Source of the DNA: a virus
Lineage: Duplodnaviria; Caudoviricetes
IMG/VR virus record: IMGVR_UViG_3300033121_002140
Coordinates: 17,962 to 81,961 of that record
DNA length: 64,000 nucleotides
Reading direction: 5' to 3' (one strand)
Shown here: positions 1,125 through 61,786 of the stretch, in pieces
Layout of the letters: each line of letters begins with the position of its first letter
How positions within the stretch are numbered: the first letter of the stretch is position 1
Notes under the pieces: model-generated
Told to the model about the DNA's origin: nothing
What the model saw: the letters and a program-made list of their open reading frames with translations, nothing else
The model's database searches: none
Program-made: the position numbers and the translations under genes

Positions 1125-1432
1125 CACCTCGACTCCTTCATCTGCTGTGCGATAGCGTTGAGCGCGATCAGGGGCCAGCCGCCCGAAGGCGCCATCCAGA
1201 CCCACTGGCCCATGTGGTCCTTGTTGAGGGCGACCTCGACGAAGTTGCTCCGGACGAGCCGATCGGACATGCCACGCGGCACACCCGGCATCGACTGCAC
1301 GACGCTGACGACGCGCGCACGGCAATTCTCGTTCGGGGGCAGCATCGCGCCCTCCCACACGATCCTGGGCGCGAGGTCGCCCGGTGCGCCAAGAGGACCA
1401 TCAAGCCCTCCCTGGTCTCTGTAGGGATGCAT
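1124..1432 (-). CDS. Hypothetical protein
   Basis: ATG at 1432 coupled to fpg stop (TGATG). Confidence 0.55.
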   Translation of the reverse strand: MHPYRDQGGLDGPLGAPGDLAPRIVWEGAMLPPNENCRARVVSVVQSMPGVPRGMSDRLVRSNFVEVALNKDHMGQWVWMAPSGGWPLIALNAIAQQMKESR

Positions 1433-2262
1433 CACTTCTGCCTTTCTGGGCACCACCACGTGGTGCGTCCGTCCAAAGTCTCCTCGGCGACCACAGCGAG
1501 CCCGTCTGGATCGTGCTTCCGCGCATAGCACATGAAGCGTGAGGTGGCGGAACCCACCTTACCCTCCGGGTCGCGATAGGACTCGATCGTGGCACCACCC
1601 AGGGCATACGATTCACGCAGCACCGCTATGATGGCCTCATGCAGCGCCACGATCTCATGCGTTCTGAGCCTGTGGACGACCCTGTGGGGCGACAACCGCG
1701 CGTGCCACAGGGACTCTGCTTTCACATAGTTGCCCACGCCGCTGATCGTGCCTTGGTCCATCAGGGCCTCTGCCAGCGTGGCCCTGGGACGTCGCAGGAT
1801 CCGCAGCGCGAACTCCTCGGGTCCCGGGGGCGCGGCCAGCATGTCAGGCCCGAGCGACGCGAGCTTCCGGTCGAGCGCGGCCTGCCCCTCCACGAACTTC
1901 AGGGTGCCGAAGTGCCGGACGTCGTCGAATGACAGCCGGACTCCGCCTTCCAGCTCAAACACGAAGGCGGGATGGGTGGGCTCAAGCGTGGTCCACCCGC
2001 CCGTCATGCCGTAGGTGCAGAACAGGTGCCAGCGGTCCGCGGGCGCGTCGTGCAGGCGACCTAGGCGCCACCACATGAACTTGCCCTTCACGTCGACCTC
2101 GAGCAGGCGGGCGTCCGGATCGGACGCCCACGTCCACTCCGCGAAGCCCACGGGAGGCGTGGTCACGTAGCGGCCGCCCGCCGTCCTGGCGTCCTGGACC
2201 CGGAGACCCACGAATTGCTGCAGCGCGTCCCGGCTGTGCCGGAGCTCAGGCCCCTCGGGCAT
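1432..2262 (-). CDS. mutM: Formamidopyrimidine-DNA glycosylase (Fpg/MutM/Nei family), lacking the 4-Cys zinc finger
   Basis: N-terminal MPEGPE, GKFMWW, DDVRHFG, LGPD, H2TH ALMDQGTISGVGNY, C-terminal RTTWWCPERQK. Confidence 0.93.
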   Translation of the reverse strand: MPEGPELRHSRDALQQFVGLRVQDARTAGGRYVTTPPVGFAEWTWASDPDARLLEVDVKGKFMWWRLGRLHDAPADRWHLFCTYGMTGGWTTLEPTHPAFVFELEGGVRLSFDDVRHFGTLKFVEGQAALDRKLASLGPDMLAAPPGPEEFALRILRRPRATLAEALMDQGTISGVGNYVKAESLWHARLSPHRVVHRLRTHEIVALHEAIIAVLRESYALGGATIESYRDPEGKVGSATSRFMCYARKHDPDGLAVVAEETLDGRTTWWCPERQK

Positions 2263-5528: not shown

Positions 5529-6005
5529 TCAGTGAGCCGCGCACGCGCTGTTCGGTGCCGAGATCATGCCGACCGCGTGCGTTCGCTCGACCCTGGGTCG
5601 GGACTCGACCTCGCGCCTGAAGTACAGGTCACACCTGTGCGGTCCCGCGGACTGGACAGGCGGGACCGTGACGGAGACCAGCTCCCAGCCCAGCGATCCC
5701 AGCCTGTCCGCGACTCTGACGACCTCGTCCCGGTCGACCGAGCGCTCGTCCTTGTGCTCGAATGTCCTCATGGGTCCCATCTTACGTTCGTCAGGCTTGT
5801 CGCAACACGTCACCGCATGCTGGATGACGCCCAACGCGAGTCGGACCTGGGCCAGGGCATGGCCCAGCGCGCGCCTGCGCTCAGGATCCATGCCGTCGAG
5901 ACAACGGCACGGGCCGTTGGTGCCCTGCCCACGCGGGGGCATGATGCGGCATGAGTGACTCATGCAGCCCGCGGTCCTCAGGGCCTCAAGGACGCCTGAG
6001 ATCAC
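5529..6005 (-). CDS. Hypothetical protein with C-terminal DUF4177-like segment
   Basis: LGSLGWELVSV...LYFRRE; GTGA coupling to alkB stop. Confidence 0.5.
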   Translation of the reverse strand: MISGVLEALRTAGCMSHSCRIMPPRGQGTNGPCRCLDGMDPERRRALGHALAQVRLALGVIQHAVTCCDKPDERKMGPMRTFEHKDERSVDRDEVVRVADRLGSLGWELVSVTVPPVQSAGPHRCDLYFRREVESRPRVERTHAVGMISAPNSACAAH

Positions 6006-6703
6006 GGTGCCTCCCGGCGCACGTCCAACGGCGCCCACTCTGCTCGGGTCCGGGAGTAGCCCCTGAAGGTGAGCGAGACCCTGGGCCCGCATGGCCGGCT
6101 CGCCTTCGGGATCCTGTGCTGCCATGCCTCCTGCATGCCCGGCGCCATCAGGCACAGGCTCCCTCCCGTGAGGAGCAGGCGCTCGGTGGGTCCTGAGTCG
6201 ACGCGGCGTCCGGCGCCGATCCGCTCGATCCCGCGACGGTCGGGCACCGCCCCGTCGCGCCTGTCGCCCTCCGCCTCCACGAGTGCGGGAGGCTTGGGTC
6301 GGAACCAGATCTCGCGCGCCGCCCCGAGGCTGACCACGGCGATGGGCCGTGCGTCGTCCATCTCGGGCGAGTCGTCCGCGTGCCAGCCCAGGTGGTCCGA
6401 GCCGTCGTCGTAGCGGTTCAAGAAGCACACCTCGAAGGCAGTGCCCGTCCGCGCCTCCAGCGCGGTCCTGACGGCGACGATCGCTGGGTGCCAGGGCGAG
6501 GGCACGTACAGGCGACGGCCCCTGCCGCGACCGTACACGTACGGGTCAGGATAGTCGTTGCAGTAGTACTCATGCCTGGGCGTGTCGCCCCTGCGCTCCC
6601 ATGCCAGCTCCTCAAGCAGGGTGCGCAGCACATGCGAGTGCTCGGGCACGAAATCGTCGATGTGTTCGACAGGAGCCTTGTCGGCAACGGGATCGTCGTT
6701 CAT
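6002..6703 (-). CDS. alkB: AlkB-family 2OG-Fe(II) dioxygenase (ALKBH2/3-like)
   Basis: CFLNRYDDGSDHLGWHADD (HxD), VSLGAAR, WQHRIPK, RVSLTFR. Confidence 0.92.
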   Translation of the reverse strand: MNDDPVADKAPVEHIDDFVPEHSHVLRTLLEELAWERRGDTPRHEYYCNDYPDPYVYGRGRGRRLYVPSPWHPAIVAVRTALEARTGTAFEVCFLNRYDDGSDHLGWHADDSPEMDDARPIAVVSLGAAREIWFRPKPPALVEAEGDRRDGAVPDRRGIERIGAGRRVDSGPTERLLLTGGSLCLMAPGMQEAWQHRIPKASRPCGPRVSLTFRGYSRTRAEWAPLDVRREAP

Positions 6704-6741
6704 GGCCTCAGGCGACTGTAATGCATGGCAGGGCGCAGTTT

Positions 6742-7005
6742 TCACCGTGTGCCCGGCTCGACGAACAGCTCCCCGTCGGAGAAGAGAGTCAGCCTGCTGT
6801 GCGTGGGACCATCCTGCCAGAGCAGCATGCACATCCTGGCACAGACGACACGACGCGTCGTGGTCTCGAGCATGTGGGCATTTTTGGACGGCGTCGCCGG
6901 CACGGACGAGAGCACGAGCGGGGCAGGCATCCCGAACCACAGCGTGTCGAGCGCCCGGCCTGGCAGCAGATCGTGCTCGCAGAATTTTCTAGGAGCCTGC
7001 ACCAT
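6742..7005 (-). CDS. Small hypothetical protein, possibly SH3-like family
   Basis: LLPGRALDTLW...; start uncertain. Confidence 0.4.
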   Translation of the reverse strand: MVQAPRKFCEHDLLPGRALDTLWFGMPAPLVLSSVPATPSKNAHMLETTTRRVVCARMCMLLWQDGPTHSRLTLFSDGELFVEPGTR

Positions 7006-7459
7006 GAGCACCCACACGCGTCAGCGCCCGCGTCTTCTTGCCCAGCCACTCCCAGTAGCGCACCAGCGCATGGTCCCTCGGGGGTTCATCGCCGATGATG
7101 CCGCGACAGAAGATGTCGTGCGCCCGGCCAGCGTACTGGCCCACGCCCAGGAGGTCCCGCGAGTCCACCCAACCGGGCCTCAGGTAATCCCGTGAAAGCC
7201 CGATGAGGGTCACTGCCCTTCTGTTGCCGAAGCCCAGGGGCGTGACCAGAGCAGACACGTCGGCGACGTCTGCGTCAGACAGGGCCCGCGCGGTGGGCCA
7301 GAGCGAGAGGAACGTGGGCAGCACCCGCTCGACCTGCCGGCGCTGGGTGCAGTTGAGCATCACGCACGCGACCAGGATGGCCCACTCGTCTGGAAAAAGA
7401 TCCTCTTGAATCAGGCTGTAGGGGCTTCTGGGTGGGCACCAACCGAGCTTGATGGGCAT
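6989..7459 (-). CDS. MBD4-like HhH-GPD DNA glycosylase (stand-alone catalytic domain)
   Basis: PPRSPYSLIQEDLFPDEWAILVACVMLNCT...PLGF..RRA...GVGQYA..AHDIFC...PRDHALVRYWEWL parallels the MBD4 glycosylase domain including catalytic D-H. Confidence 0.85.
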   Translation of the reverse strand: MPIKLGWCPPRSPYSLIQEDLFPDEWAILVACVMLNCTQRRQVERVLPTFLSLWPTARALSDADVADVSALVTPLGFGNRRAVTLIGLSRDYLRPGWVDSRDLLGVGQYAGRAHDIFCRGIIGDEPPRDHALVRYWEWLGKKTRALTRVGAHGAGS

Positions 7460-7472
7460 GGCTCCTCTTGGA

Positions 7473-7763
7473 TCACGAGGCGTCGAGCGCCTCGAGCTCG
7501 AGCACCCGAGCGCGACCGGCCCGGGACAGGCCCTGCACGACGATCATGACCACGGTGCCGCGACTGTCCAGTGCAGCGCCCCACACAGCGGTGTGAAGCT
7601 GCTGTCGTCGACCCCACGGCACGGAACGACCGCTGGATTCGACCCAGAGGACCAGGAAGGGCCCGCGCTCGTGGCACCAGTCGTCCAGCCTGTCGTCGAC
7701 GATACCGGTGACGTCGCGCAGCACCCTGCCCGGTCGGATCGACGGGACCATCTTCTTGCCCAT
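7473..7763 (-). CDS. Small SH3/KOW-like hypothetical protein
   Basis: IRPGRVLRD...PFLVLWVE...WGAALDSRG. Confidence 0.55.
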   Translation of the reverse strand: MGKKMVPSIRPGRVLRDVTGIVDDRLDDWCHERGPFLVLWVESSGRSVPWGRRQQLHTAVWGAALDSRGTVVMIVVQGLSRAGRARVLELEALDAS

Positions 7764-8635: not shown

Positions 8636-8669
8636 CCCATTTCGCTTGGTTCGACCTTGGGTCCACAGC

Positions 8670-8676
8670 ATAGCTA
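8670..8676 (+). promoter_or_regulatory. Putative late-promoter heptamer
   Basis: ATAGCTA 5 nt before ATG 8682. Confidence 0.6.
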
Positions 8677-8681
8677 CGACC

Positions 8682-9632
8682 ATGGTCGTCTATAAGGTGA
8701 CGCACCGCACAACGGGCTTGTGCTACGTCGGAAAGACGCGCGGTACGGTCGAGAGCAGGTGGCGGGCGCACGTCCGCGATGCGCGGCGGGGCTCGCGGAC
8801 GCGTTTCCACGCGGCCATCCGCGAGCACGACGCCGATGCTTTCGATGTCGAACAGGTCGAGCAGTGCGCCGACGCTGGCGAGCTCGACCGTGCGGAACGC
8901 AGATGGATCGAGCTGCTGGGGACGACGGATCCTGCGCGCGGCTTCAACAGCACGACGGGCGGACAGAACGGCGCGCTATGCGAGACGTCGAGACGCAAGA
9001 TCTCGGTCGCGCTATCGGGCAAGTCCAAGGACGAACGCCACCGCGCGCAGCTCTCCCACGCGCAGTCCCAAAAGACGGGGCCCCTGAACAGCTTCTTCGG
9101 TCGCACGCACTCGGAGGAGACGAAGCGACGCATCGCGGATTCGATGCGAGGTGAGCGCGGGCCCTGTTTCAATCGAACAGGAGAGCGCCACCCGATGTGG
9201 GGCACGCAGCACAGCGATGAGGCCCGCCAGAAGATGGCTGCGGCGCATGTAGGCAGGTCTCTCACCCACGAGCACGCGAGAAGCATCTCCGAGGGCCATG
9301 GTCGACGCAACGCTGCTCTGCACGAAAAACGGGCCAGGGCGCTTGAGCTCCTCGACGCAGGGCTGACACGACGGCAGGTGCGCGAGGAATTGGGCGTGAC
9401 GCTAGGGTTCATTTACGGCGCGACGTCGCGCCGTAACACTGCGCGTCGCGCCTCAGGCCTGCAGGCCAGCGGCGATGAACATGCGGGCGTTGTAGGGCCC
9501 GAAGCACCCGTCGAGCAGGGCCTGGGGAGGCACCCAGACGACCCTGCCGGCCTCGGTCGTCCGGATGGGCCCCCTGCAGTCGTGCCAGTCGGCCTCGAAG
9601 GTCGTGGTGACGAAGCCGTCGTGCTCCTCTGA
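8682..9632 (+). CDS. GIY-YIG homing endonuclease with NUMOD3 repeats and C-terminal HTH
   Basis: VYKVTHRTTGLCYVGKT...RW..H, FNSTTGG, HSEETKRRI, HSDEARQKM. Confidence 0.88.
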   Translation: MVVYKVTHRTTGLCYVGKTRGTVESRWRAHVRDARRGSRTRFHAAIREHDADAFDVEQVEQCADAGELDRAERRWIELLGTTDPARGFNSTTGGQNGALCETSRRKISVALSGKSKDERHRAQLSHAQSQKTGPLNSFFGRTHSEETKRRIADSMRGERGPCFNRTGERHPMWGTQHSDEARQKMAAAHVGRSLTHEHARSISEGHGRRNAALHEKRARALELLDAGLTRRQVREELGVTLGFIYGATSRRNTARRASGLQASGDEHAGVVGPEAPVEQGLGRHPDDPAGLGRPDGPPAVVPVGLEGRGDEAVVLL

Positions 9633-9923
9633 CTCATAGACGAACCGCAAGGCGCGCGGATCGACCGTGAGCCCAGTCTCCTCCAGCAGCTCGCGCGCGG
9701 CAGCCTCGGCCAGGTCTTCCCCGGGCTCCACCTTGCCGCCCGGACAGCCGAAGTCCGTGGGATCGTGCTTGCGTGAGACCGCGAGCACGCGGCCCATGTG
9801 CCTGATCAGCACGCAAGCCGCACGTTTTGACCCAGGTTCGTCGTTGCGATCTGTGACCTGCACGATGATCATCTCCTCCTCCAGGAGCCCCCGCACGGCG
9901 GCACGAAGGAGGTCTGACCTCAT
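9453..9923 (-). CDS. NUDIX hydrolase with N-terminal LRAAVRGLLEE tag
   Basis: Nudix box GGKVEPGEDLAEAAARELLEETGL. Confidence 0.92.
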   Translation of the reverse strand: MRSDLLRAAVRGLLEEEMIIVQVTDRNDEPGSKRAACVLIRHMGRVLAVSRKHDPTDFGCPGGKVEPGEDLAEAAARELLEETGLTVDPRALRFVYESEEHDGFVTTTFEADWHDCRGPIRTTEAGRVVWVPPQALLDGCFGPYNARMFIAAGLQA

Positions 9924-10315
9924 CGTGCGATTCCTCGGGTCATGTCCTCGCGGCGCGCCGCGAGCTCGCGCGTGACCTGGGTGGACAGGTCTGCTCGCAC
10001 CAGGCCGATCACGCGGCCGTTGTCTGCCAGGGGCTTGAAGCGCGGCGGCTGCCCGTCCGGAGCCTCCGTGACGTTCGCCTCGGTGGCCTCCAGCACGTCC
10101 TTGACCGCGTCCACCACGTCCTCGCAGACGACGGCCGCGAGCTTCTGCTTGACCACGACGCCCAGCAACGGGCACGCGATCTGCCCGGCTGCGTCGACCG
10201 CTGCTCCTGCCAGCACGGGGTCGACCCTACCGTCGACGCAGCCCTGCAGGGTGCCGCAGGCGAGCGCGACCGCGAAGAAGGCCGCGTGCGCGGCCAGCCA
10301 CCTCGAAAATCTCAT
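9920..10315 (-). CDS. Putative lipoprotein
   Basis: Basic N-terminus, hydrophobic stretch, lipobox-like LQGC. Confidence 0.55.
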   Translation of the reverse strand: MRFSRWLAAHAAFFAVALACGTLQGCVDGRVDPVLAGAAVDAAGQIACPLLGVVVKQKLAAVVCEDVVDAVKDVLEATEANVTEAPDGQPPRFKPLADNGRVIGLVRADLSTQVTRELAARREDMTRGIAR

Positions 10316-10945: not shown

Positions 10946-11365
10946 TCATCGTCGCTCGTCCGCAGCCTGCCAGGCGCGCCAATGCGGTTCCAGCACGGCC
11001 TCGTGCTTGCGCTCGAAGTCGCGCACGTCCTGCTGCCGGGCTTCATGACCGGGATCGAGCCGTGCTTGACGCTGCAGCCTCGCGTACTCGAAAAAAAGCA
11101 ACAGCGTCTTCGTCAGCGTCTCCTCCCTGCTCGGAGCAGGCGGGGGCGGAGGCCTCGGGATGCCCATGAGCTCGTGCTCCACGTAGCGACGCACGTCTCC
11201 AGGTCCGATCCCGTAGCCGCCCTCGTCCCAGTCAGTCACGCCCAGCAGCTCACCGCAGCCCAGGACCCACGACTTGCCCTCGGGCGACCTGAGCTTCACG
11301 TGCTGGCTCCCCACCGCAAATGCCCAGGTGCCTGAAGAAAGGACGAGGTCACGCATCTTCGCCAT
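10946..11365 (-). CDS. Hypothetical protein
   Basis: ORF with typical codon usage, overlapping the exonuclease 3' end. Confidence 0.55.
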   Translation of the reverse strand: MAKMRDLVLSSGTWAFAVGSQHVKLRSPEGKSWVLGCGELLGVTDWDEGGYGIGPGDVRRYVEHELMGIPRPPPPPAPSREETLTKTLLLFFEYARLQRQARLDPGHEARQQDVRDFERKHEAVLEPHWRAWQAADERR

Positions 11366-12230
11366 GTTCGACGTCGTTCCTGCCCCAGAGGGGCTCGAAA
11401 GTGGGAATGAGACGGTTGGACCAATACGGATCCGACGTGACCTTGTTCACGCCCAGGGCACGCAGCTCGGACCTCAGCCCTTCCCAGTCGCGGACCGGAC
11501 ATGACGACTCGACCGCGTCCAGCTCCTCCTCAGGCACCTCCGCCAGCTTGATGAGGTGAAAGTTGAGGGTCAATCTCTCCTTCCGGCCCTCCACCGCAAG
11601 GAAGCGCTCGAGCGCGTCCGGGGTCCGCACCAGCTCCAGGGCACGCTTCGGCCCGATGCCCTCGAACCCCCTCACGTTGTCGCCCTCGTCGCCCTTCAGC
11701 GCCTTCCACAGCACGTATGCGTCGCCTGCCAGCTCGTGCGTCAGGTAGTCGTCCTTGTGCGCGCTGAAGAGCCTGACGTTCGGTCGGTCCAGGAGCTGGA
11801 GGAAGTCTGTGTCGCTTGACACGACCGTGAAGTCGACGGCCGTCGAGGCGCGTGCGACCAACGTGTTGATCAGGTCATCGGCCTCGAACCTGGGATGGCG
11901 CATGACGGCCACAGGCATGAAGCGCCTGACCAGCTCCACAGCGTGGCTCGCGACGACCAACATGTCGTCGCGAGCCTGGGCCCGTCGCCGGCCCTCATCG
12001 TCCAGCGTGCTCGGGTCGACTCGACGGTTGGCCTTGTAGGCAGGAAAGAGGGCAAGCCTGTCGACAGGCTTGCCCTCGAACACCATGACCACGCGCGTGG
12101 GTGCCAGGCGCTCCACGGTCGCACGCAGGCACGTGAAGAGCGACGCCAGCGGCATGCCTGAGCCGCAGGCCCGGTGCAGGTAATTCAGCCCGTCGATGAT
12201 GACTGTGTGAGGTCGGGATCGCAGGCTCAT
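11349..12230 (-). CDS. 5'-3' exonuclease / flap endonuclease (Pol I N-terminal, T4 RNase H-like)
   Basis: IDGLNYLHRA, VFEG, YKANR, EADD, SSDTDFLQL, GDEGDNVRGFEGIGPKRA. Confidence 0.95.
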   Translation of the reverse strand: MSLRSRPHTVIIDGLNYLHRACGSGMPLASLFTCLRATVERLAPTRVVMVFEGKPVDRLALFPAYKANRRVDPSTLDDEGRRRAQARDDMLVVASHAVELVRRFMPVAVMRHPRFEADDLINTLVARASTAVDFTVVSSDTDFLQLLDRPNVRLFSAHKDDYLTHELAGDAYVLWKALKGDEGDNVRGFEGIGPKRALELVRTPDALERFLAVEGRKERLTLNFHLIKLAEVPEEELDAVESSCPVRDWEGLRSELRALGVNKVTSDPYWSNRLIPTFEPLWGRNDVEHGEDA

Positions 12231-29273: not shown

Positions 29274-29935
29274 CAGGCACCCGTGGGCCCCGCGCCGGCG
29301 GCGGCCGGGGCCTGGAAGTCGGCCTCACGCTCGTCGTCGGTCAGCTCCGTGTCGATGCCGTGCTGGTCGGCGAGCGCCGCCTTGACAGCGTCGACCTCCT
29401 CAGGCTTTCGCCCCTTCTGCAGGAAGCCCAGGGCGCGCCGGGCGAGGGTCTGGCGCACGTCGATGACGGTGTCGAAGTTCTCGATCAGGCGGGCCACCAT
29501 GCCCGCGAACGCGGCAGGATCGAACTCAGCGCCGCCCTCGTCGTCACCCACGTCGGCTGGGACCTGAGGCACGTCGTCGTCCCCCTCGTCTGCCTCACGC
29601 AGCAGGAAACGCCTCGTCATGCCCCTCAGGGAACCGTCGCGGCCCTCGGCATGGAGCCCCTTGCCAGAAGCCTCCTTCTCGAAACCGATGAGCTGGCGGT
29701 CCACCTGCGAGTCCAACGAAGAGCCGTCTGGCATGGAGGGCTGCTGCTTTCCGCCGGGTTCGTCCTCGTCGTCGCCGGCGTCCTTCTCATCCGTGTCGTC
29801 GACCGCGTCGTCGAACAGGTCGTCGCCTCCCTCGTCCTCGGCGCTGCCCTTTTCGTCCTTGTCCTCGTCCTCGGGTGCCTCGATCAACAGCGCGGCAGCG
29901 ATGGTCCGGCGCAGCTCCCCCAGCCTGATCTTCAC
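29273..29935 (-). CDS. Acidic hypothetical protein with N-terminal tag
   Basis: MKIRLGELRRTIAAALLIEA; internal RRFLLREA; GTGA coupling. Confidence 0.7.
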   Translation of the reverse strand: MKIRLGELRRTIAAALLIEAPEDEDKDEKGSAEDEGGDDLFDDAVDDTDEKDAGDDEDEPGGKQQPSMPDGSSLDSQVDRQLIGFEKEASGKGLHAEGRDGSLRGMTRRFLLREADEGDDDVPQVPADVGDDEGGAEFDPAAFAGMVARLIENFDTVIDVRQTLARRALGFLQKGRKPEEVDAVKAALADQHGIDTELTDDEREADFQAPAAAGAGPTGA

Positions 29936-30666
29936 TTCAGTGCCTCCGCGATCTTTTCGGCCTTCGCCATGCGTTCCTCGACCACCTGCCAGTTGATCTC
30001 GCGCATCTGCGCGACCACATACGACTGACGGTCGGTCATGTAGTCCCGGAAGTACGCGTGCGACCACACGTCGATCACGAGGACTGGGTACAGGCCCAGC
30101 ATCACGTGCCCGTCATGTCCATCGATCACGGTGTTGACGTACCGCCTCAGGAAGGTGCTGTAGCCCATGACGACCCAGCCCTCCTGAGCGGCCATCGCGC
30201 ATGCGATGAAGTCCTGCTGCCAGTCGTCGAACGTGCCCCAGTCCCTCTCCAGGCGCATGTAGGACTTGGTGTCGGAGTAGATCTGCGAGTGCGGGTCGAA
30301 GCAGTTGGCGAAGTAGAGATCATGCAGCCACACTGCGTTCGCGGAACGCGCCTCCGTGACCTTTAGGTCCCTGAAGGGCGACTTGTCCGGGCCCGAGCCC
30401 CCACGGTCCGCGGTGTCGAGCTCGGCGGACGCCTTGTTCAGGGCCTGCACGTAGCCCTCGTACAGCGCCTTGTGCGCGGCCTTGGTCTTGTCCGAGACCC
30501 GTTCCGACACCTGCGGGAACGTCTTCGCCTGCGCGACGTAGGACTCGTCCAGGCCTTGCGCCCGGGGAGCGACGCCCGCCTGCTGGAGCGACAGCTGCAC
30601 GATCCTGTCGATGTTGAGGCCTGCCAGGGTCTGATCAGTCTTCGCCTCGCTCATCTTCATCAGCAT
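29932..30666 (-). CDS. sod: Fe/Mn superoxide dismutase with N-terminal extension
   Basis: AAHKALYEGYV, WLHDLYF, WGTFDDW, PVLVIDVWSHAY (canonical WEHAY). Confidence 0.85.
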   Translation of the reverse strand: MLMKMSEAKTDQTLAGLNIDRIVQLSLQQAGVAPRAQGLDESYVAQAKTFPQVSERVSDKTKAAHKALYEGYVQALNKASAELDTADRGGSGPDKSPFRDLKVTEARSANAVWLHDLYFANCFDPHSQIYSDTKSYMRLERDWGTFDDWQQDFIACAMAAQEGWVVMGYSTFLRRYVNTVIDGHDGHVMLGLYPVLVIDVWSHAYFRDYMTDRQSYVVAQMREINWQVVEERMAKAEKIAEALK

Positions 30667-31295
30667 GACTCCTCTTTCTGAAGGTATCGCCAGGCGAAGC
30701 CTCCTGAGCTCCTGATGACACCACGCGCTGCGGCAGCCACGGTAGTCTTTTCGAAGCCATCAGCCTGCACCGCAGTCACAGATGGATAAACTTGCAGCAC
30801 AGCTCCCGTGGCAGGATCGCATCGTGCGACACGTTTGTGATGAGCACGTCTACTTGCCTCGATGATCTTTTGGCGTTTTTCGGGAGCCAGCACAGCCATC
30901 GCACGTCGCACGTTTGTGCACGCTTCAACTGTGAACTTTCGGCCCCGGCGCGATTGCGACATCCGCTGCCGTGCTTCCAAGGAGAATTTTCGGCCAGTCA
31001 TCACGCCGTCGCCACCGATCGTGCTATTGTAGCCCAGCTCGCCCATCGACCGCAGCCGTGCGATCCACTCACGTTCTGCGTGCTTGACCTGCTCAGGCGT
31101 GCCGCAGATCTCGAGCACCTCGTGCTTCCAGCATCCAGGACCGTGCAGCGCGATGGCTCTGTGAAAATGACACTTGGAACCCTGCCTTGCAAGCTTGGCG
31201 TGACGCATCCAACGCCGCAGCATTGTGAACGACGTCATACCGACGTACGACTTGCCATTGAGCACGTTCACGTGCCTGTACACGATGCAGGGCAT
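30660..31295 (-). CDS. GIY-YIG homing endonuclease with NUMOD3 and NUMOD1
   Basis: VYRHVNVLNGKSYVGMT, GYNSTIGGDG, C-terminal YPSVTAV...GGFAWRY. Confidence 0.88.
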   Translation of the reverse strand: MPCIVYRHVNVLNGKSYVGMTSFTMLRRWMRHAKLARQGSKCHFHRAIALHGPGCWKHEVLEICGTPEQVKHAEREWIARLRSMGELGYNSTIGGDGVMTGRKFSLEARQRMSQSRRGRKFTVEACTNVRRAMAVLAPEKRQKIIEASRRAHHKRVARCDPATGAVLQVYPSVTAVQADGFEKTTVAAAARGVIRSSGGFAWRYLQKEESC

Positions 31296-31573
31296 CACGA
31301 CAGCTCGTATTCTTGCTCGAGCTCTCCGTTGTGAACGAGGAACTTTTTGCCCTCGGGGGTACGCAGGATCGTGTCCTTGGTCCCCACCGAATCGACCGTG
31401 TAGAGCAGACCCGTCTTCTTGTGTCGCAGCTTCAGGCCTGCCGACAGCACGTTGCGCTGGCCGCCGTCCTTGGTGCCAAACACGACGTCGACGTCCTTGG
31501 CGAGCTCCGCCAGACGCCTGGCATGCTCCTCCTTGAACGCCTGGACGACGTCCGCCTCCGTCAGGGTCCTCAT
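31295..31573 (-). CDS. Hypothetical protein
   Basis: MRTLTEADVV...; coupled at both ends. Confidence 0.65.
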   Translation of the reverse strand: MRTLTEADVVQAFKEEHARRLAELAKDVDVVFGTKDGGQRNVLSAGLKLRHKKTGLLYTVDSVGTKDTILRTPEGKKFLVHNGELEQEYELS

Positions 31574-32058
31574 CGCCGCCTCCTGCCCTGCCCACGCAGG
31601 GCGTCGATGTCAGCGTAGGTGTCCTCGCGTGACTGTCCGGCGGCATGACCCGCGGCCCATGTCTCCGCTTCCCGCTCAGCCGCGTTCTCCGCGCTCCAGG
31701 GCTCGTCCGCGTCCGTCTCCCGGCGCCAGGGTCCAGGCGCGCCCGATCCTTTGTTCGGGTTCCAGTGCCTGTCATAGTAGGCCTTCGCGGACGCCTTGAG
31801 GTCATCCAGCCCAGCAGGCCTGACCTGCCGCACCTCGGCCGCAGGAGCGTCGGCATCGACGGGTTCGGCGACGCCGTTCTTGACGCCGCGGGCGTACGCC
31901 CGAGCCAGCTTCTCCGCGCTGTCTCCGCCGAAGACCCGGGGTTTGCCCGGCGTGCCGTCCTTTTCCGTGAACGTGACCTGCCAGGACGTCTCAGAGAGAC
32001 GCATCAGCTCTCTTCGCACGAAAGACCGCAGCTCATTGACCGACGATCGCATCGTCAC
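31570..32058 (-). CDS. Hypothetical protein with N-terminal tag
   Basis: NELRSFVRRELMRLSE. Confidence 0.65.
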   Translation of the reverse strand: MTMRSSVNELRSFVRRELMRLSETSWQVTFTEKDGTPGKPRVFGGDSAEKLARAYARGVKNGVAEPVDADAPAAEVRQVRPAGLDDLKASAKAYYDRHWNPNKGSGAPGPWRRETDADEPWSAENAAEREAETWAAGHAAGQSREDTYADIDALRGQGRRRR

Positions 32059-35696: not shown

Positions 35697-35977
35697 GCCG
35701 TGACCTCCTCTTCGTCTCCAATCCTGATCACCCTGAAGGCCCAGCCCGCCGGGATCGCGAGGACGAGTGCGGCGGGATCGCGGGCCCTGAGCTCGTCCAT
35801 GACGTCCCTGAGTCCCGTCTCCATGATCTCACGTGTGGTCTGCTGCGGCTCGTATTGAAACAGCAGGACGGTGCCCACGCCGTCCGGTATCTCGAAGCGC
35901 TCGATGTTGCCACGGCGGGCGGGCAGCTCTTCCCAGGTCTCGAAGACCCGCAGGATCTTATCGTGTGAACTTTGCAT
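35693..35977 (-). CDS. Small hypothetical protein
   Basis: ORF between coupled genes. Confidence 0.5.
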   Translation of the reverse strand: MQSSHDKILRVFETWEELPARRGNIERFEIPDGVGTVLLFQYEPQQTTREIMETGLRDVMDELRARDPAALVLAIPAGWAFRVIRIGDEEEVTA

Positions 35978-36977
35978 ATCCGTTCCACGATGTGGATGCA
36001 CGAAGCGCTCGAGACAGCGTCAGCAATCCGAGTCTACCCGCGCGGTGCGCCGCGAGAACCCTGATCCAATCCATCCAATAGCCATGGAGCAGCTCCAGAG
36101 CGCCAGACGCCTCGCGGACAGTCGAAACGACGTCACGAGCGGACCTCGCGGCACGCAGCTGACACTCCAGTGCTGCCATCGTCACTGTGGGCGGATGCGT
36201 CATGATCGCAGGCATCGATTTGTCCTGCTCAATGTCGATCGGCGATGCCAGCGTTCGCTGGACCAACCGAAAATCACGCTCGTATACGTGAAGCGAGTTC
36301 GACACGTGTGTGTATGAACCCAATCCCACGGCCAGCTCGAGCGCCATGAGCTCCTGAAAGAGCGTGAAGGCAAAGACGTCGTAGGGCAACCCGATCACGA
36401 GATCGCTCGATCTCATCGAGACGATCAAGTGCAGCCTACCTTCACGTAGAAAGAACTGCAGGGCAAGCGTGCACGGCACGTCTCTTTTGGCCAACCATGA
36501 ATCGGTAGCTGACCGGATCTGGATCACAGCCCGGCGTGAATCTGGGTCACGTCGCAGCTCTTCCTTGATGTACTCCCACTGGGACTGCATGGGCCCTGCC
36601 TTGAGCTCCCACGCTGTTTCCACTTCGTGACCGTGGACCCGCGGATGCCAACGCCTGAAGATCCTTGCACCGTAGGCCGAGTTCGCGGTCTTTCCATCGT
36701 CGCTGATTCCGCGCCAAAAGGGCGCATACCAGCCGATCCAGTCGGTCTCATCGTTTCCCGTCAGGTACCAGAGCGACTCTGCGACTGCATACGACACGGA
36801 ACGGTCCGCTGCAGGCACGAATGCGAGCCTGGCTCTCGGATCTGCCAACGTGAACTTCACTGCCAGCTGTTCTTTCACCCGTTGACCACGGGGTGCGCAT
36901 TCATACGTGGGGTTCTCAAACACGCTCTTGAGCAGGTCCCAGTAGCAAGACGTGAAGCCGCTGTATGCACGTTCCAT
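35958..36977 (-). CDS. Thymidylate-synthase-fold enzyme with dCMP-type Asp (putative dCMP hydroxymethylase/methylase)
   Basis: SDDGKTANSAYG, DPDSRRAVI, catalytic DVPCT, MRSSDLVIGLPYD (Asp where ThyA has Asn), SLHVYERDF. Confidence 0.85.
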   Translation of the reverse strand: MERAYSGFTSCYWDLLKSVFENPTYECAPRGQRVKEQLAVKFTLADPRARLAFVPAADRSVSYAVAESLWYLTGNDETDWIGWYAPFWRGISDDGKTANSAYGARIFRRWHPRVHGHEVETAWELKAGPMQSQWEYIKEELRRDPDSRRAVIQIRSATDSWLAKRDVPCTLALQFFLREGRLHLIVSMRSSDLVIGLPYDVFAFTLFQELMALELAVGLGSYTHVSNSLHVYERDFRLVQRTLASPIDIEQDKSMPAIMTHPPTVTMAALECQLRAARSARDVVSTVREASGALELLHGYWMDWIRVLAAHRAGRLGLLTLSRALRASTSWNGYAKFTR

Positions 36978-36984
36978 TGCCAGA

Positions 36985-37012
36985 AGGATACCTATCAAAA
37001 AGATGGCGTACA
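36985..37012 (-). promoter_or_regulatory. sigma70-type promoter, leaderless; overlaps the divergent gene start
   Basis: TGTACG-N16-TATCCT-N7-ATG 36977. Confidence 0.55.
36988..36994 (+). promoter_or_regulatory. Putative late-promoter heptamer
   Basis: ATACCTA 8 nt before ATG 37003. Confidence 0.6.
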
Positions 37013-37722
37013 TCTACTGCATCACGAACAGGATCGATGGAAAGCGCTACGTCGGACAGACGGCCACGACATTATCCAGGCGTTGGAACGGCCACAAACA
37101 GTCTGCCAAGCGTCATACCAACGATTCACATCTTGCTCGCGCAATCCGTCTGCACGGTCATGACGCATTCATGATCGAACCGCTGCAAGAATGCCAAATC
37201 GATGAGCTCGACGAGCTCGAAAGATGGTGGATCGCGCAGTTGCGCACGCAAGATCCCAACGTCGGCTACAACCTGTCGCCAGGTGGCCTGGGGGGCAATA
37301 GAGGGCTGCGCCGCTCGGACGATGCAAGGGCTAAAATGCGTGCACGACACTGGGCACGCGACGCTAAGCGTCGAGACCAGGCGACCAGGCGGAACAGCGA
37401 ATCGCACGTGGGGATCGAGATGGATCACGAGACTCGTGCCAAGATCTCGAGGAGTCTCGCAGGCCATGTTCGCAGCGAAACAACGAGGACACGCATCGGC
37501 GAGACAAAAAAGGGCTCAAGCAACCCGATGTGGGGCAAGCCCTCCAAAAGACGTCCTGTCGTCCAGTGCACACCTGGTTGGCAGCTTATTGCAGTCCACG
37601 GATCGATCGAAGCTGCTGCGAAGGCCGCAAACGTCTCGGCACCGACCATCCGGTCCGCTTGCGCCCGGGCCGTCATTACGGCGGGATCGCGCTGGTGTTT
37701 TCTTGAGGACGACCCTGTCTAA
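37003..37722 (+). CDS. GIY-YIG homing endonuclease with NUMOD3 and NUMOD1
   Basis: YIYCITNRIDGKRYVGQT, GYNLSPGG, GSSNPMWGK, RPVVQC...SIEAAA; lower GC. Confidence 0.9.
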   Translation: MAYIYCITNRIDGKRYVGQTATTLSRRWNGHKQSAKRHTNDSHLARAIRLHGHDAFMIEPLQECQIDELDELERWWIAQLRTQDPNVGYNLSPGGLGGNRGLRRSDDARAKMRARHWARDAKRRDQATRRNSESHVGIEMDHETRAKISRSLAGHVRSETTRTRIGETKKGSSNPMWGKPSKRRPVVQCTPGWQLIAVHGSIEAAAKAANVSAPTIRSACARAVITAGSRWCFLEDDPV

Positions 37723-39372: not shown

Positions 39373-39930
39373 TCACAAGACCAGCGCGGCCCGCAGCTCC
39401 GTGATCTGACGCCCGAGGTCCTCGTCGTCCACCGTGAGCCGCGTCACCCTGCAGCCGGTCGTCTCGACGAACTCCCGGTAGAGACCGTCGATCTGCATCA
39501 GCCGCGCTGGCCCGAGCTCGTCCGGGAACCTGTCGTCCCTGATCCCGGCGTACGAGGTGCGGGTGCACAGGACCAGGTCGGCACCCAGGGCCGCGTACCT
39601 GGCGTCCGCGTGCCACACGGCCGCGTCGTCCCGAGCACGGCCCATCGCCCTCGAATACACCCACTCGCACGGATAGCCGCGGTCCTTGACCATGCTGGCG
39701 CCAGATGCCCGGAGAAACGATGCCAGGTACTCGTCGCCGTAACGGACCGTGCGTGCGAAGCGCGTCGGGTCGTCCTTGAAAGCGTCCCACTCGCGGTCGT
39801 ATTTCCAGTATGGGATCCCGACCGCCGCCGACAACCCGCGCGCGATCTCGGTCTTGCCACATCGATCTGGTCCAACCATCACGATGATGCGCTGTTCACG
39901 GTTTTCTGAAGTACTCGAACGTCCGTTCAT
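39373..39930 (-). CDS. Thymidylate-kinase-like dNMP kinase
   Basis: P-loop GPDRCGKT; DRGYPCEWVY; start uncertain. Confidence 0.8.
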   Translation of the reverse strand: MNGRSSTSENREQRIIVMVGPDRCGKTEIARGLSAAVGIPYWKYDREWDAFKDDPTRFARTVRYGDEYLASFLRASGASMVKDRGYPCEWVYSRAMGRARDDAAVWHADARYAALGADLVLCTRTSYAGIRDDRFPDELGPARLMQIDGLYREFVETTGCRVTRLTVDDEDLGRQITELRAALVL

Positions 39931-40708
39931 CCCACTTCACTCCTTCAACAGCAAGAAGCTCTTGGAACGAGAGCTTCGGAAAGTCGTCCTCGGTGACTAC
40001 CCTGAACTCCAGTCCCCGCTCTGCGCAGTACGCCCGGGCGGCTTCGAACTTCGCCATGTTCTTAGGCGTCTTCGCCAATCTGCTCGGCTTCACCTCGAAC
40101 AGCAACCCTTGCGATGGCACACCGAAGTCAGGTCGGTAGGTACCGCCCGACCAGCGAATCAGGTGTGCCTCGTAGTCTAGGTCGTGCTGCACGTCCAAAC
40201 CCATCGAGCGTTCTGCATGCAAGAGGAATGAGAGCTCGAACAAGCTACGGAAGAAGACACCCTTGTACCAGCCTTTGACGGACCGACCGCTGCGGGCATA
40301 CACTTTCCCCCACGCAGGATTGTTCTCGCCTGAGACAGCCGCCGACGTCCGCCGAGAGATGTCAGCGGCACGTTCCTCGCCATAGATCTCCGCGTTCGTC
40401 TTGCCAGTGCGGTGCTGCGTCACGCGCTGTAGACCATGCACATGGTCATGTCGACCGTGCATTGGATTCTTCTCACCGGACGTTGCCTTCGACATCGTCA
40501 GCTTGAATCGTCGCGTTCTCTCAGCACCTTCGACGGCACCGAGCTTGGCTTCAAAGCGCTCCTGCACTGATCGACCACGCTGCCACGCATTTAGGCATGA
40601 CACGCAGCAAAACCGCGGCAGCTGCTTTCGAGACGGCCACACGGTCTTGACCGCGGTCTTTCCGCACTGCGGGTTCTGACACACGAACTCGTACGCGACG
40701 GGCGACAT
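39896..40708 (-). CDS. Homing-endonuclease-like protein: Cys-rich N-terminus, NUMOD3-like repeats, TnsA-like PD-(D/E)XK domain
   Basis: CQNPQC, FCCVSC, GEKNPMHG, FRSLFE, YRPDF, FEVKP, KFEAARAYC..RGLEFRVVTE; ATACCTTA upstream. Confidence 0.78.
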   Translation of the reverse strand: MSPVAYEFVCQNPQCGKTAVKTVWPSRKQLPRFCCVSCLNAWQRGRSVQERFEAKLGAVEGAERTRRFKLTMSKATSGEKNPMHGRHDHVHGLQRVTQHRTGKTNAEIYGEERAADISRRTSAAVSGENNPAWGKVYARSGRSVKGWYKGVFFRSLFELSFLLHAERSMGLDVQHDLDYEAHLIRWSGGTYRPDFGVPSQGLLFEVKPSRLAKTPKNMAKFEAARAYCAERGLEFRVVTEDDFPKLSFQELLAVEGVKWDERTFEYFRKP

Positions 40709-46110: not shown

Positions 46111-46139
46111 AGGGTAGCTCACCCGGCACCCGTTGTGCA
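46111..46139 (-). promoter_or_regulatory. sigma70-type promoter, leaderless
   Basis: TGCACA-N17-TACCCT-N6-ATG. Confidence 0.55.
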
Positions 46140-47375
46140 TGCGCCGGATCCGAGCAGTGCCATCACCCGCGCGCGTTCCTGCTCGAAGACGGGCGCAGGC
46201 TCGCAGTGCCAGGCGTGCCTGACGGAACCGTTGGGACCGGGCCTGGGCCTGCGTGTCACCCAGCGGCCCTGTCGACGACCCGGTTCGACCCGATCCCAGT
46301 CATAGCCGCCCTCGGCGCCCTGCAGGGCCATCAGCTCCCTGACGTCCGGGCTGGCGTCCTTCCAGACGCGACCGATCATGGCCTTGACCTCCTCGGTCGA
46401 CTTGCCGTGGAGCTCCCGGTGGGAGAACAGGGCCTGACCCGCGGCCGACACCGCGTTGCGCATCGCATCGCGCTGGCGCCACACCAGGCAGTTGAAGGCC
46501 TCGTCCGCGCAGGGCAGGCTGAAGGCCCGACCGTCGAAGCTGGCAAGCTTCGCTCGGCCGTCGAAGCACCAACCCGACATCGTGCTCACGGTCGCCGCCG
46601 CGGCCGAGGCGGAGACGCTGACCACCTTCTGCAATGCTCCTCCGAACCAGGGCTCGGCCGCGGCGGTCGACCGCGCGGGCACCAGCACCGTGACCTCGTC
46701 CGACTGGACGTAGGCCAGGGCCGCGTCCTGCACGGTCTCAGCCAGGTTCTCGGCCGCACTGTCCATGATCGCGATGAACCTGTTGTCGAAGGGCCTGTCC
46801 AGGCCGCGGGTCCACGTGTGGAACGCCTTACCGTCGACACGAACAGCGTAGGGCAGGTCCGGGTCCAGCGCGGGCCCCTGGCGCTCCTCGTAGGCCTTCA
46901 TGCGGTCATGCAGCGAGGGCCGCCGCAGCTCCAGCACCCGGAGACGCATGGTGCCCCCGTCACGGGTCGCCAGCGACTCTGTCGAGCCCGTCTCGACGAA
47001 GCCCGCCTGCCGCAGCACCGCGTGTCCACCGGTCGAAAAGGCGCGGGCGCGGCACAGCTTGGTGCCCGCGCCCCAGGCCTGGCCCAAAAACCGCCACGTG
47101 AGCTCGCCTGCCAAGCCTTGGCCACGAAGCTCAGGTGCCACCTCGATCGAGTACAGCTCCAGGACGCCCTCGTCCAATTCCTTGGCGTAGGCCGCGCCCA
47201 GGATCCGGCCATCCGATGGCCGGACCGCGACGACCGAGCGGGGCAAAGCCAGGGCCATCACGACAGCGTCATCGTCAAGCACCTCGGGCGGGTAGCACTC
47301 CGCCTGGAGCGCGTTCAGACCCCGCACGTCGTCCTGGCTGGGGGGTCTAAACCTCAGGTCACTGCGTCTCTTCAT
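46119..47375 (-). CDS. GNAT acetyltransferase fused to Thg1-family tRNA(His) guanylyltransferase
   Basis: GNAT motif A IEVAPELRGQGLA; Thg1 DRMKAYE, RVDGKAFH, YVQSDE, WFGG..QK..S, FDGR, WRQRDA.RN. Confidence 0.9.
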   Translation of the reverse strand: MKRRSDLRFRPPSQDDVRGLNALQAECYPPEVLDDDAVVMALALPRSVVAVRPSDGRILGAAYAKELDEGVLELYSIEVAPELRGQGLAGELTWRFLGQAWGAGTKLCRARAFSTGGHAVLRQAGFVETGSTESLATRDGGTMRLRVLELRRPSLHDRMKAYEERQGPALDPDLPYAVRVDGKAFHTWTRGLDRPFDNRFIAIMDSAAENLAETVQDAALAYVQSDEVTVLVPARSTAAAEPWFGGALQKVVSVSASAAAATVSTMSGWCFDGRAKLASFDGRAFSLPCADEAFNCLVWRQRDAMRNAVSAAGQALFSHRELHGKSTEEVKAMIGRVWKDASPDVRELMALQGAEGGYDWDRVEPGRRQGRWVTRRPRPGPNGSVRHAWHCEPAPVFEQERARVMALLGSGACTTGAG

Positions 47376-47391
47376 CCGTCGACTGTACGCG

Positions 47392-48138
47392 TCAGGCTGC
47401 GGGTGTGCACCCGGCGACCAGCTGCTCCCAGCGGTCGGAGACCAGCCGCGCGTACAGGCATGAGTGCAGGCCGTAGCAGCCCAGGGCGAAGCCATCGTTG
47501 CCCTCGACCAGCAGAGTCCGTCCGTCGTCGGTCACGCCGAAGTCGAGGGCGTAACCCTCGGGCCCGCGCCAGGCCCGGACCGCGGCCGCCACCACCTCGG
47601 AATCGGGAAAGACGAGGCAGTCGCCTGCGTAATGTCTCAAGCCCACGGGCGCGCCCTGGTGCACGAAGCACCTGTACTCGGAGACGAAGCACACGGGCTC
47701 CGAGCACAGCACCTCGAACTCGTCATCGAGGCTCGCGGTCACGATCAGGTCGGCGCACTTGCCGCTTGTCACGTGCCCGGTGAACGCCTTCTGGGCGCGC
47801 AGGGGCTTCACGAAGACGTGGTCGTCCGAGTCCAGACGCCGGCGCACCTCCCGCATCGTGGTCGCCCAGACGCGACGCCCGTAGAAGGGCAGCAGCTCCA
47901 CCGGTGGCATGCCACCGAAGGCGTCGGGCTGGCCAGCGCCCAGTCGCTCCAGGGCGCGACGCACGCAGCCGATGCCGCCGTGCACCAGGATGGCAGGCGT
48001 GAGCTCCAGGTCGGGCAGCTGTTCGGGCACGAAGCCCCTGACCTCGGTCCCGAACAGCCTGAGCCCCTGGACCAGCGCGAAGGAGCTCTCGTTGAGCCAA
48101 TCGTCATCCTTGCGCTGCACGTATGCAAGATCGATCAT
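47392..48138 (-). CDS. ATP-grasp protein (DUF4343/R2K-like)
   Basis: VFVKP, SEYRCFV, YALDFGV, LVEGND. Confidence 0.8.
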   Translation of the reverse strand: MIDLAYVQRKDDDWLNESSFALVQGLRLFGTEVRGFVPEQLPDLELTPAILVHGGIGCVRRALERLGAGQPDAFGGMPPVELLPFYGRRVWATTMREVRRRLDSDDHVFVKPLRAQKAFTGHVTSGKCADLIVTASLDDEFEVLCSEPVCFVSEYRCFVHQGAPVGLRHYAGDCLVFPDSEVVAAAVRAWRGPEGYALDFGVTDDGRTLLVEGNDGFALGCYGLHSCLYARLVSDRWEQLVAGCTPAA

Positions 48139-58802: not shown

Positions 58803-59426
58803 ATGCTTCACATCTACATCGATCGCACCAACGAAGGCGTGCCATTCTACGTTGGGATGGGTGATGAATCGCGCGTGCGCCTCAAGCGACGCAACAAGCA
58901 CCACAGCAGCGTGGCACGAAAACACGGCCTCGTGCGCACGATCGTCGAGTCGCACGAGACCAGGGAAGCAGCCGCGCTGCGCGAGACCGAGCTCATCGCC
59001 GAGCTTCACACGTTCGTCGACGACCCGCTCTACAATGGACTGGGCTGCAACTACACCAAGGGTGGTGAGGGCTGTTCCTGCGACGAAGGAACTCGCCAAA
59101 AGATCAGCGACGCCAAGAAAGCAGCGTACGCAGCAGGACGAATGCCTTGGAACAAGGGTAAATCTGCGCCGGTGAAACTCAGCGACGAAGAACGCGAACG
59201 TCGTCGACAGCTGTTGGCTAATCGGAATCGTCGGATCAAACCGATGCTTGGTCGATCACACACTGATGAGAGCAGAGCGAAGATGAAACGACCCCATCGA
59301 TGTTCCATCTGCACTGAAACAGGTCACACCAAAACGACCTGCCCACAGCGTCCTGCTGACGCCGTAAACAACGTGCAGATTGCACAGAAAAACCGGTACA
59401 GACGAGCTAGAACGCTCCGTAATTGA
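58803..59426 (+). CDS. GIY-YIG-type homing endonuclease with NUMOD3 and Zn-knuckle-like C-terminus
   Basis: HIYID...PFYVGMG..SR, NYTKGGEG, PWNKG, HTDESRAKM, CSIC..TGHTKTTC. Confidence 0.82.
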   Translation: MLHIYIDRTNEGVPFYVGMGDESRVRLKRRNKHHSSVARKHGLVRTIVESHETREAAALRETELIAELHTFVDDPLYNGLGCNYTKGGEGCSCDEGTRQKISDAKKAAYAAGRMPWNKGKSAPVKLSDEERERRRQLLANRNRRIKPMLGRSHTDESRAKMKRPHRCSICTETGHTKTTCPQRPADAVNNVQIAQKNRYRRARTLRN

Positions 59427-61374: not shown

Positions 61375-61380
61375 GAGGGC

Positions 61381-61409
61381 ATCATACCACGCCGCTGCGT
61401 GCGCCGACA
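61381..61409 (-). promoter_or_regulatory. sigma70-type promoter, leaderless
   Basis: TGTCGG-N17-TATGAT-N6-ATG. Confidence 0.7.
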
Positions 61410-61416
61410 TGCCCGC

Positions 61417-61773: not shown

Positions 61774-61778
61774 GTCGT

Positions 61779-61785
61779 TAGGTAT
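61779..61785 (-). promoter_or_regulatory. Putative late-promoter heptamer
   Basis: ATACCTA 5 nt before ATG 61773. Confidence 0.6.
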
Positions 61786-61786
61786 G

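Follow-up and report, generated by a model that had tools for sequence, protein, structure and literature searches.

The glycosylase gene and its neighbourhood

The window analysed here, a stretch of 64,000 nt, corresponds to positions 17962-81961 of an 81,961-b virus record in IMG/VR from an uncultured phage, and the phage origin proposed in an earlier note, made from the sequence alone, agrees with this provenance. The completeness of 24% estimated by CheckV places the whole genome near 340 kb. No match was found when 25 kb of the window were compared by megablast with 50,697 phage records, and the DnaE-type polymerase of the window is at most ~26% identical to any cultured-phage record. The minus strand holds nearly all genes in the window, including the glycosylase gene, which was found at exactly the coordinates given in the earlier note. 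The features on which the analysis relies are listed below.

1432-2262 (-): Fpg/Nei-family glycosylase/AP lyase, starting MPEGPEL, with catalytic Pro2 and Glu3
6002-6940 (-): AlkB-like 2OG-Fe(II) oxygenase, adjoining the glycosylase gene downstream
6989-7459 (-): MBD4-type HhH-GPD DNA glycosylase, stand-alone, 156 aa (stop codon included in the coordinates)
7460-7472 (-): spacer of 13 nt to the upstream ORF (7473-7763), containing the AAGAGGAG ribosome-binding site
8646-9632 (+): GIY-YIG/NUMOD3 homing endonuclease, nearly the sole plus-strand gene of the region
9453-10175 (-): NUDIX hydrolase, directly upstream of the MBD4-type gene in related contigs
11349-12230 (-): 5'-3' exonuclease/FEN, conserved synteny partner
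35958-37013 (-): thymidylate-synthase-fold enzyme (TS homologue), Asp-type, with LPYD where ThyA has Asn177 (LPFN)
59407-60423 (-): polynucleotide kinase/3'-phosphatase (PNKP; kinase and HAD phosphatase, Pfam)

The glycosylase ORF is intact, begins with ATG and is preceded at a distance of 2-3 nt by the Shine-Dalgarno sequence AAGAGGAG, a strong ribosome-binding site as read from the sequence. Its GC3 of 0.81 is usual for genes of this window (66% GC), and the gene probably forms one transcript with its upstream neighbours. Two small ORFs and the GIY-YIG homing endonuclease separate it from the NUDIX gene. A short ORF with gene-like GC3 (6742-7017) fills the gap below the glycosylase gene and overlaps its end. 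The AlkB-like gene, the true start of which is probably near 6703 (MNDDP...), had no match in any of 29 related loci and thus appears to be a recent, lineage-specific addition to the repair cluster. The best solved relatives of the Nei protein are PDB 3a42, 3a45 and 3vk7, which we take to be mimivirus Nei1, rather than bacterial Fpg; only two Cys are present in its C-terminal part, so a zincless finger is probable.

According to Pfam, a YAcAr/SLOG protein and an M15 endolysin are also encoded near the glycosylase gene, while a second NUDIX protein, a CN hydrolase, a superoxide-dismutase-like protein and the TS homologue are located farther along the window, followed beyond the latter by two sugar-nucleotide epimerase/dehydratases, a glycosyltransferase, a GNAT-Thg1 fusion, an R2K ATP-grasp protein, DnaE, PNKP and RlaP. 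Part of this inventory forms an RNA-repair-like set on the minus strand (46119-48138 and 59407-62854), comprising the GNAT-Thg1 fusion, R2K ATP-grasp, PNKP and the RlaP nucleotidyltransferase. Other mobile endonucleases occur at 30660-31856 (GIY-YIG) and 39896-40708 (NUMOD3 and TnsA-like).

Family assignment, fold and base pocket

Search of all PDB chains with phmmer retrieved 15 distinct MBD4 glycosylase-domain sequences with E-values from 7e-29 to 2e-27, residues 6-146 of the window protein aligning without gaps to residues ~437-577 of human MBD4 (~40% identity over 141 residues), whereas the best non-MBD4 chain was MutY with an E-value of 7e-5. Pfam recognized only a generic HhH-GPD domain (30.5 bits), PHROGs contained no family for the protein, and the NCBIfam models of endonuclease III and MutY, TIGR01083 and TIGR01084, scored 18.4 and 17.9 bits, far under their respective cut-offs of 211.7 and 286.5. 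The preference for MBD4 over Nth/MutY expressed in the earlier note was therefore upheld, and the motifs which it listed (PPRSP, LIQEDLF, LN.T, GVGQY, IFC and DHAL..YW.WL) are all present, matching MBD4 column for column. It was also right in seeing no Fe-S motif: the C-x6-C-x2-C-x5-C cluster pattern is absent, and the four Cys of the glycosylase (positions 8, 32, 37 and 118) form no cluster motif. A methyl-CpG-binding domain is likewise absent, as the glycosylase domain starts at residue 6 of 156 aa and HhH-GPD is the sole Pfam assignment.

The AlphaFold2 model built from 34 homologues had a mean pLDDT of 95, and its 16 best PDB matches were all MBD4 domains, with target-normalised TM-scores of 0.92-0.96 and rmsd of 1.1-1.5 Å. 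The next fold was that of the archaeal, thermostable Fe-S T:G glycosylase Mig.Mth TDG (1kea), with a TM-score of only 0.60. Mig.Mth belongs to the same HhH-GPD superfamily and also removes T from G:T, but both it and MutY/Nth differ from the window protein in possessing a [4Fe-4S] cluster and twice the size, and their TM-scores of ~0.6 and sequence E-values of 1e-3 to 1e-5 place them in another family. Judging by sequence, fold and the trees described below, we regard it as practically certain that the window encodes a real and intact glycosylase of the MBD4 family.

The closest known system is the glycosylase domain of mammalian MBD4/MED1 (human residues ~426-580; PDB 4e9e, 4dk9, 6vjw, 3iho, 1ngn, 4evv and 4ew0), with which the window protein shares the fold, the catalytic Asp, the pocket Gln, Tyr and Leu, the Leu-Gly pair, Arg512, the lack of an Fe-S cluster and Tyr in place of the lyase Lys. 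It differs in being phage-encoded, in having neither the N-terminal methyl-CpG-binding domain nor the linker, and in the substitutions Arg468 to Cys, Gly471 to Arg, Lys562 to Ala and Lys539 to Gln. The plant MBD4L enzymes, represented by long Cuscuta and Phlomoides proteins, have the same catalytic domain (43-44% identity) and also lack a canonical MBD; these proteins are 560-880 aa long with extended N-terminal regions and, as in other long forms, position 468 is mostly occupied by Lys, Arg or Gln and position 471 by Gly.

Human numbering equals the window residue plus 431, which gives the following equivalents (window = human): Q18 = Q449, L35 = L466, C37 = R468, R40 = G471, F77 = L508, R81 = R512, Y109 = Y540, A131 = K562 and, for the catalytic Asp, D129 = D560. 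In human MBD4 the base pocket is made up of residues 447-449, 560-562, Leu466, Gly471 and Tyr540; O2 and N3 of the flipped base are read by Gln449 and Tyr540 and O4 by the backbone of residue 448, Asp560 is catalytic, and the Q449A variant is inactive (PMC3479182). The orphan G is read there by the backbone carbonyls at positions 468 and 506, Arg468 plugs the gap vacated by the flipped base, and the protein does not touch the 5-hydroxymethyl group of 5hmU (PMC3479182).

In the window protein this base-reading pocket is kept (Q18, Y109, L35 and I17) and is conserved throughout the clade. We compared 123 short/viral sequences with 111 long ones, the label 'short' being length-based and therefore noisy, as some of these rows are eukaryotic fragments. 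The D560 column is invariant in both sets, and Q449, Y540, D560, L466, N467, T469, L506, G507 and R512, as well as the pocket residues 447-449, are invariant or nearly so among the 123 short/viral sequences. Asp129, Gln18, Tyr109 and nine more columns are also invariant in an alignment of 34 sequences sharing 32-71% identity with the window protein. Such conservation of the pocket points to T, U or a 5-substituted U opposite G as the natural predicted specificity. Tyr109 occupies the position of the lyase Lys of Nth and other bifunctional HhH enzymes, and the enzyme should consequently be monofunctional, leaving an abasic site.

At four positions the clade departs consistently from the long forms. 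The Arg468 plug is not retained in the window protein, which has Cys37 at this position and a near-invariant Arg three residues on, at human 471. Arg at 468 is, moreover, not universal in the MBD4 family: the position is Cys in 100 of the 123 short/viral sequences and Lys, Arg or Gln in the long (eukaryotic) forms. Position 471 is Arg in 121 of 123 short/viral sequences and Gly in 83 of 111 long forms; position 562 is Ala in 114 of 123 and Met, Lys or Asp in the long forms; position 539 is Glu or Asp in the short/viral clade, Lys in the long forms and Gln in the window protein. The replacements at 468 and 471 suggest that DNA handling or tolerance at C5 may differ from those of human MBD4. We infer that Arg40 might act as plug and phosphate clamp in place of Arg468, and that the pocket may be wider around C5 owing to the small side chain of Ala131.

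Distribution, carriers and phylogeny

A word-indexed search yielded 66 proteins including the query, 108-181 aa in length and all metagenomic, the others sharing 47-88% identity with it. When 1.84 billion cluster representatives were searched exhaustively with HMMER, 2,042 matches were obtained; short stand-alone proteins predominated among the best few, and the lower ones were mostly proteins of 300-1,200 aa with the domain at the C-terminus (~40-45% identity), two of which, when checked, proved to be plant proteins, one of them named MBD4. A scan of genomes with two narrow peptide patterns, which understates distant bacterial homologues, detected a single locus among 185,579 prokaryotic species genomes, in a Bdellovibrionota MAG, and 24 loci in IMG/VR, most of them on contigs of 100-340 kb. 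Profile search of 124 genomes of the phylum of this MAG again returned one full-length match (213 bits), in the same MAG, the remaining matches being partial, located in MutY/Nth-sized ORFs and scoring no higher than 54 bits.

The Bdellovibrionota MAG locus keeps the phage order FEN - NUDIX - x - glycosylase. In this locus (L002; JBBAUR010000009.1, 58112-70510) the genes FEN - NUDIX - x - MBD4-type - D12-methylase-like are found beside plainly bacterial ones, those of a PAS histidine kinase and PrkA, and it is either what remains of a prophage or part of a chimeric contig; in one search a TAG fell within its MBD4-type match. A second apparent bacterial source, a 'Betaproteobacteria MAG' (NBV89131.1), was rejected, as its 230-kb contig has the gene content of a giant phage. 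This contig, one of two ENA contigs concerned (L041/L042; 64.8 and 230 kb), encodes thymidine kinase, SOD, a phage lysozyme and dozens of tiny same-strand ORFs, and the bin was probably contaminated by a phage.

The order of genes is preserved beyond the window. A 247-kb contig repeats it as endolysin - FEN - NUDIX - glycosylase - ... - YAcAr - Nei - UvdE - GroEL. By local phmmer, 21 of the 24 IMG/VR viral loci have FEN 0.4-8 kb from the MBD4-type gene, in most cases upstream of it, and eight of the 24, as well as one further contig (L043), have Nei 0.3-8 kb downstream. This synteny, together with the viral nature of the contigs, indicates that the close clade is essentially a giant-phage family and that most loci belong to one lineage.

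Cultured phages carry the gene rarely: tblastn against the 50,697 phage records gave matches in only 15, and 13 of these belong to the Xp12 group. The DNA of Xanthomonas phage Xp12 contains 5-methylcytosine in full replacement of cytosine (PMC7653180, PMC9206674). The best PDB match of the Xp12 protein QNN97216.1, annotated as 'hypothetical', is MBD4 (E 5e-14 versus 5e-4 for Endo III), and its gene lies two genes upstream of an LPYD-type TS homologue, dCMP deaminase and DHFR. The orthologue in Stenotrophomonas phage AXL1, gp65, has been described as an 'ENDO3c' protein of uncertain function, adjoining NTP-PPase, TS/pyrimidine hydroxymethylase, deaminase and DHFR (PMC9206674); it was not recognized there as MBD4-type, and its function was left open. 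Like the window protein, QNN97216.1 and gp65 are stand-alone MBD4-type proteins of phages with an Asp-type TS in the genome. They differ in being only ~35% identical to it and in forming a long branch, and their carriers are siphoviruses of ~64 kb in which the gene is placed inside the modification cluster, as against 29 kb away from the TS homologue in the window. Full-text literature search found no description of a phage MBD4-type glycosylase, the nearest being the AXL1 'ENDO3c' note (PMC9206674), and HhH-GPD is not listed in the MetaGPA paper or its supplements.

Phylogenetic trees were calculated from 148 columns with four Nth/MutY-type outgroups; supports were modest and the outgroup branch long. 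The branch splitting MBD4 and the window protein from the outgroups received 96-99% support, so that the comparison with MBD4 and the HhH-GPD families proposed in the earlier note placed the protein with MBD4 and apart from Nth/MutY. The FastTree reconstruction of 250 domains placed 116 short/viral sequences in one clade, among them the query, Xp12 and the Bdellovibrionota MAG; its sister clade, likewise of 116, held 99 of the 111 long sequences, and a few long (eukaryotic) sequences were basal. The IQ-TREE reconstruction (LG+C20, 106 rows) nested the long sequences in a short/viral grade. In neither case was the phage protein nested in a single eukaryotic group, be it plants, animals or other, and it is thus not a recent capture from a eukaryote. 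Hence, of the designation 'eukaryote-type MBD4 domain' used in the earlier note, the family part is borne out, while 'eukaryote-type' is misleading, since the clade is large, mostly viral and nested in no eukaryotic lineage.

Modified cytosine and the probable role of the enzyme

The residue at the position of ThyA Asn177 sets specificity for cytosine versus uracil. Among solved structures, the TS homologue of the window is closest to the CMP 5-hydroxymethylase MilA (E 1e-47), and this relation, together with Asp at the Asn177 position, suggests that the phage very probably makes a 5-substituted cytosine. On the minus strand between 35958 and 46140 the Asp-type TS is followed by two NAD-dependent sugar-nucleotide epimerase/dehydratases, a P-loop kinase-like protein and a glycosyltransferase, a gene set which looks like a putative pathway to a glycosylated 5hmC-type base.

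The TS homologue was searched for with PF00303 in 23 of the 24 related viral records and in that of the window itself, and was present in 13 of them; in all 13, aligned to true ThyA, the Asn177 column contains Asp. Both records with the MBD4-type gene that are at least 90% complete also have the Asp-type TS, as do all but one of those over 60% complete; in G011 (61% complete) the MBD4-type gene is present and no TS homologue was found with PF00303. Three subtypes were distinguished: AYDVPAFT/PYDVFAFT (MilA-like), ANDAPAFS, and KND..WQ, the last of which we take to be T4 gp42-like. Extended to 32 viral records, of which 26 carry the MBD4-type gene, the search gave 14 TS homologues, all of the Asp-type. 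Among the relatives reached through the Nei gene, one of 160 kb has both the MBD4-type glycosylase and the Asp-type TS, and another (L066, IMGVR_UViG_3300028558_000791; 480,838 b, 100% complete, flagged as a provirus), found through a Nei gene with 37% identity, has no MBD4-type gene and no TS homologue. The presence of three distinct Asp-type TS subtypes within one syntenic phage lineage (L028-L040, L073) suggests that the cytosine-modifying enzyme was swapped while the glycosylase was kept.

The MBD4-type gene is associated with the Asp-type TS in no fewer than two unrelated phage groups, and the TS-Asp sequences concerned are of four types, although the co-occurring records mostly belong to one syntenic lineage and thus represent few independent events, the numbers being small. 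The co-occurrence proposed as a check in the earlier note was accordingly observed, with the same pairing in Xp12, and the link to a modified genome suggested there is supported, albeit indirectly, by the Asp-type TS in the same genome.

Considering these data, we believe that the phage MBD4-type enzyme probably serves the phage's own DNA by repairing 5-substituted cytosine that has been deaminated, with substrates predicted from the pocket residues. The Asp-type TS homologue would make the 5-substituted cytosine, either 5hmC, possibly further glycosylated, or 5mC, and its deamination would leave G opposite T, 5hmU or a derivative, none of which is removed by the uracil glycosylase Ung. The glycosylase would flip the deaminated pyrimidine and recognise its O2/N3/O4 face through Gln18, Tyr109 and the main chain at residue 17, while the orphan G would be checked by the backbone carbonyls of the two DNA-inserting loops; Asp129 of the active, monofunctional enzyme would then cut the glycosidic bond. 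The resulting abasic site would probably be processed without an AP endonuclease, being cut by the phage Nei through beta,delta-elimination, and PNKP would remove the 3'-phosphate left by Nei before polymerase and ligase finish the repair. NEIL/PNKP-type repair independent of AP endonuclease is known in mammals, and by analogy Nei and PNKP could finish repair in the phage. In favour of this role we count the proximity of Nei to the MBD4-type gene in related loci, the intact MPE motif of the Nei in the window and the presence of PNKP in it. Against it stand the many modified-cytosine phages which do without the gene, the matches in only 15 of 50,697 phage records noted above, and the location of the gene among general repair genes (Nei, AlkB-like and FEN; UvdE in a relative).

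The same location could be taken as evidence of a general mismatch or uracil glycosylase, acting on G:U, G:T and perhaps oxidised pyrimidines within a broad giant-phage repair kit, in which case the association with the Asp-type TS would be an effect of lineage. The richness of the region in repair genes, including PNKP, is consistent with this, as are the synteny, and hence ancestry, shared by most co-occurring records and the fact that MBD4 also excises U opposite G. However, the association recurs in the unrelated Xp12 siphovirus group, where the gene is part of the cytosine-modification cluster (PMC9206674 for AXL1); three Asp-type TS subtypes accompany the gene in the giant-phage lineage, and the complete relative devoid of TS is also devoid of the MBD4-type gene. 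On these grounds we consider a general repair function unlikely, though it is the main rival of the role proposed above.

It is considerably less probable that the enzyme has been retargeted, i.e., that Cys37, Arg40 and Ala131 allow it to attack intact modified cytosine, a bulky hypermodified base, or the DNA of the host or of a competitor, and that it serves modification editing or conflict between genomes instead of repair. The clade-wide changes at human positions 468, 471 and 562 do adjoin the pocket and the plug, and the glycosyltransferase and sugar-nucleotide genes of the window suggest a glycosylated base, but the invariant Gln and Tyr which read the uracil face favour T/U-like substrates, Xp12 with its plain 5mC carries the same family, and no toxin-like or defence-like neighbours were seen. 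Nothing specific speaks for a catalytically dead or merely DNA-binding remnant, and the twelve invariant columns of the 34-sequence alignment, Asp129, Gln18 and Tyr109 among them, together with the intact ORF and its strong ribosome-binding site, make such a remnant highly improbable.

Returning to repair of deaminated cytosine derivatives as the preferred role, a wider joint reading can be offered only tentatively, as a possibility with the odds against it. The phage MBD4-type proteins would be an old and diverse viral family evolved to guard genomes with 5-substituted cytosine, from which the eukaryotic MBD4 domain would descend; the rewired loop (Cys at 468, Arg at 471, Ala at 562) would suit deaminated hypermodified bases, e.g., glycosylated 5hmU, and with the mimivirus-type Nei and PNKP the enzyme would constitute a self-contained base-excision pathway without an AP endonuclease. 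In eukaryotes, MBD4 is studied for its protection of methylated CpG sites. If our reading is true, the problem of deaminated 5-substituted cytosine is solved in viruses by the same enzyme as in eukaryotes, and the viral clade is a candidate source of the eukaryotic MBD4 domain. The MBD4-type gene could then serve as a cheap genomic marker for modified-cytosine phages, a function would be assigned to the 'hypothetical' or 'ENDO3c' genes of Xp12-like phages, and small stand-alone natural variants of a G:T / G:5hmU glycosylase would become available for possible use in methylation and deamination sequencing chemistry.

What is new here is the high-GC giant-phage lineage with the conserved FEN - NUDIX - glycosylase - Nei synteny, the MilA-like TS subtype, the clade-wide change of the insertion loop and one concordant double-negative relative. 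A further gene of the window, that of a protein with a Fe/Mn superoxide-dismutase C-terminal domain (29932-30666, minus strand), is conserved with E-values of ~1e-81 to 1e-85 and is found ~9 kb from the glycosylase gene in related giant-phage contigs (L003, 976-1728; L017, 880-1623; L041, 910-1635).
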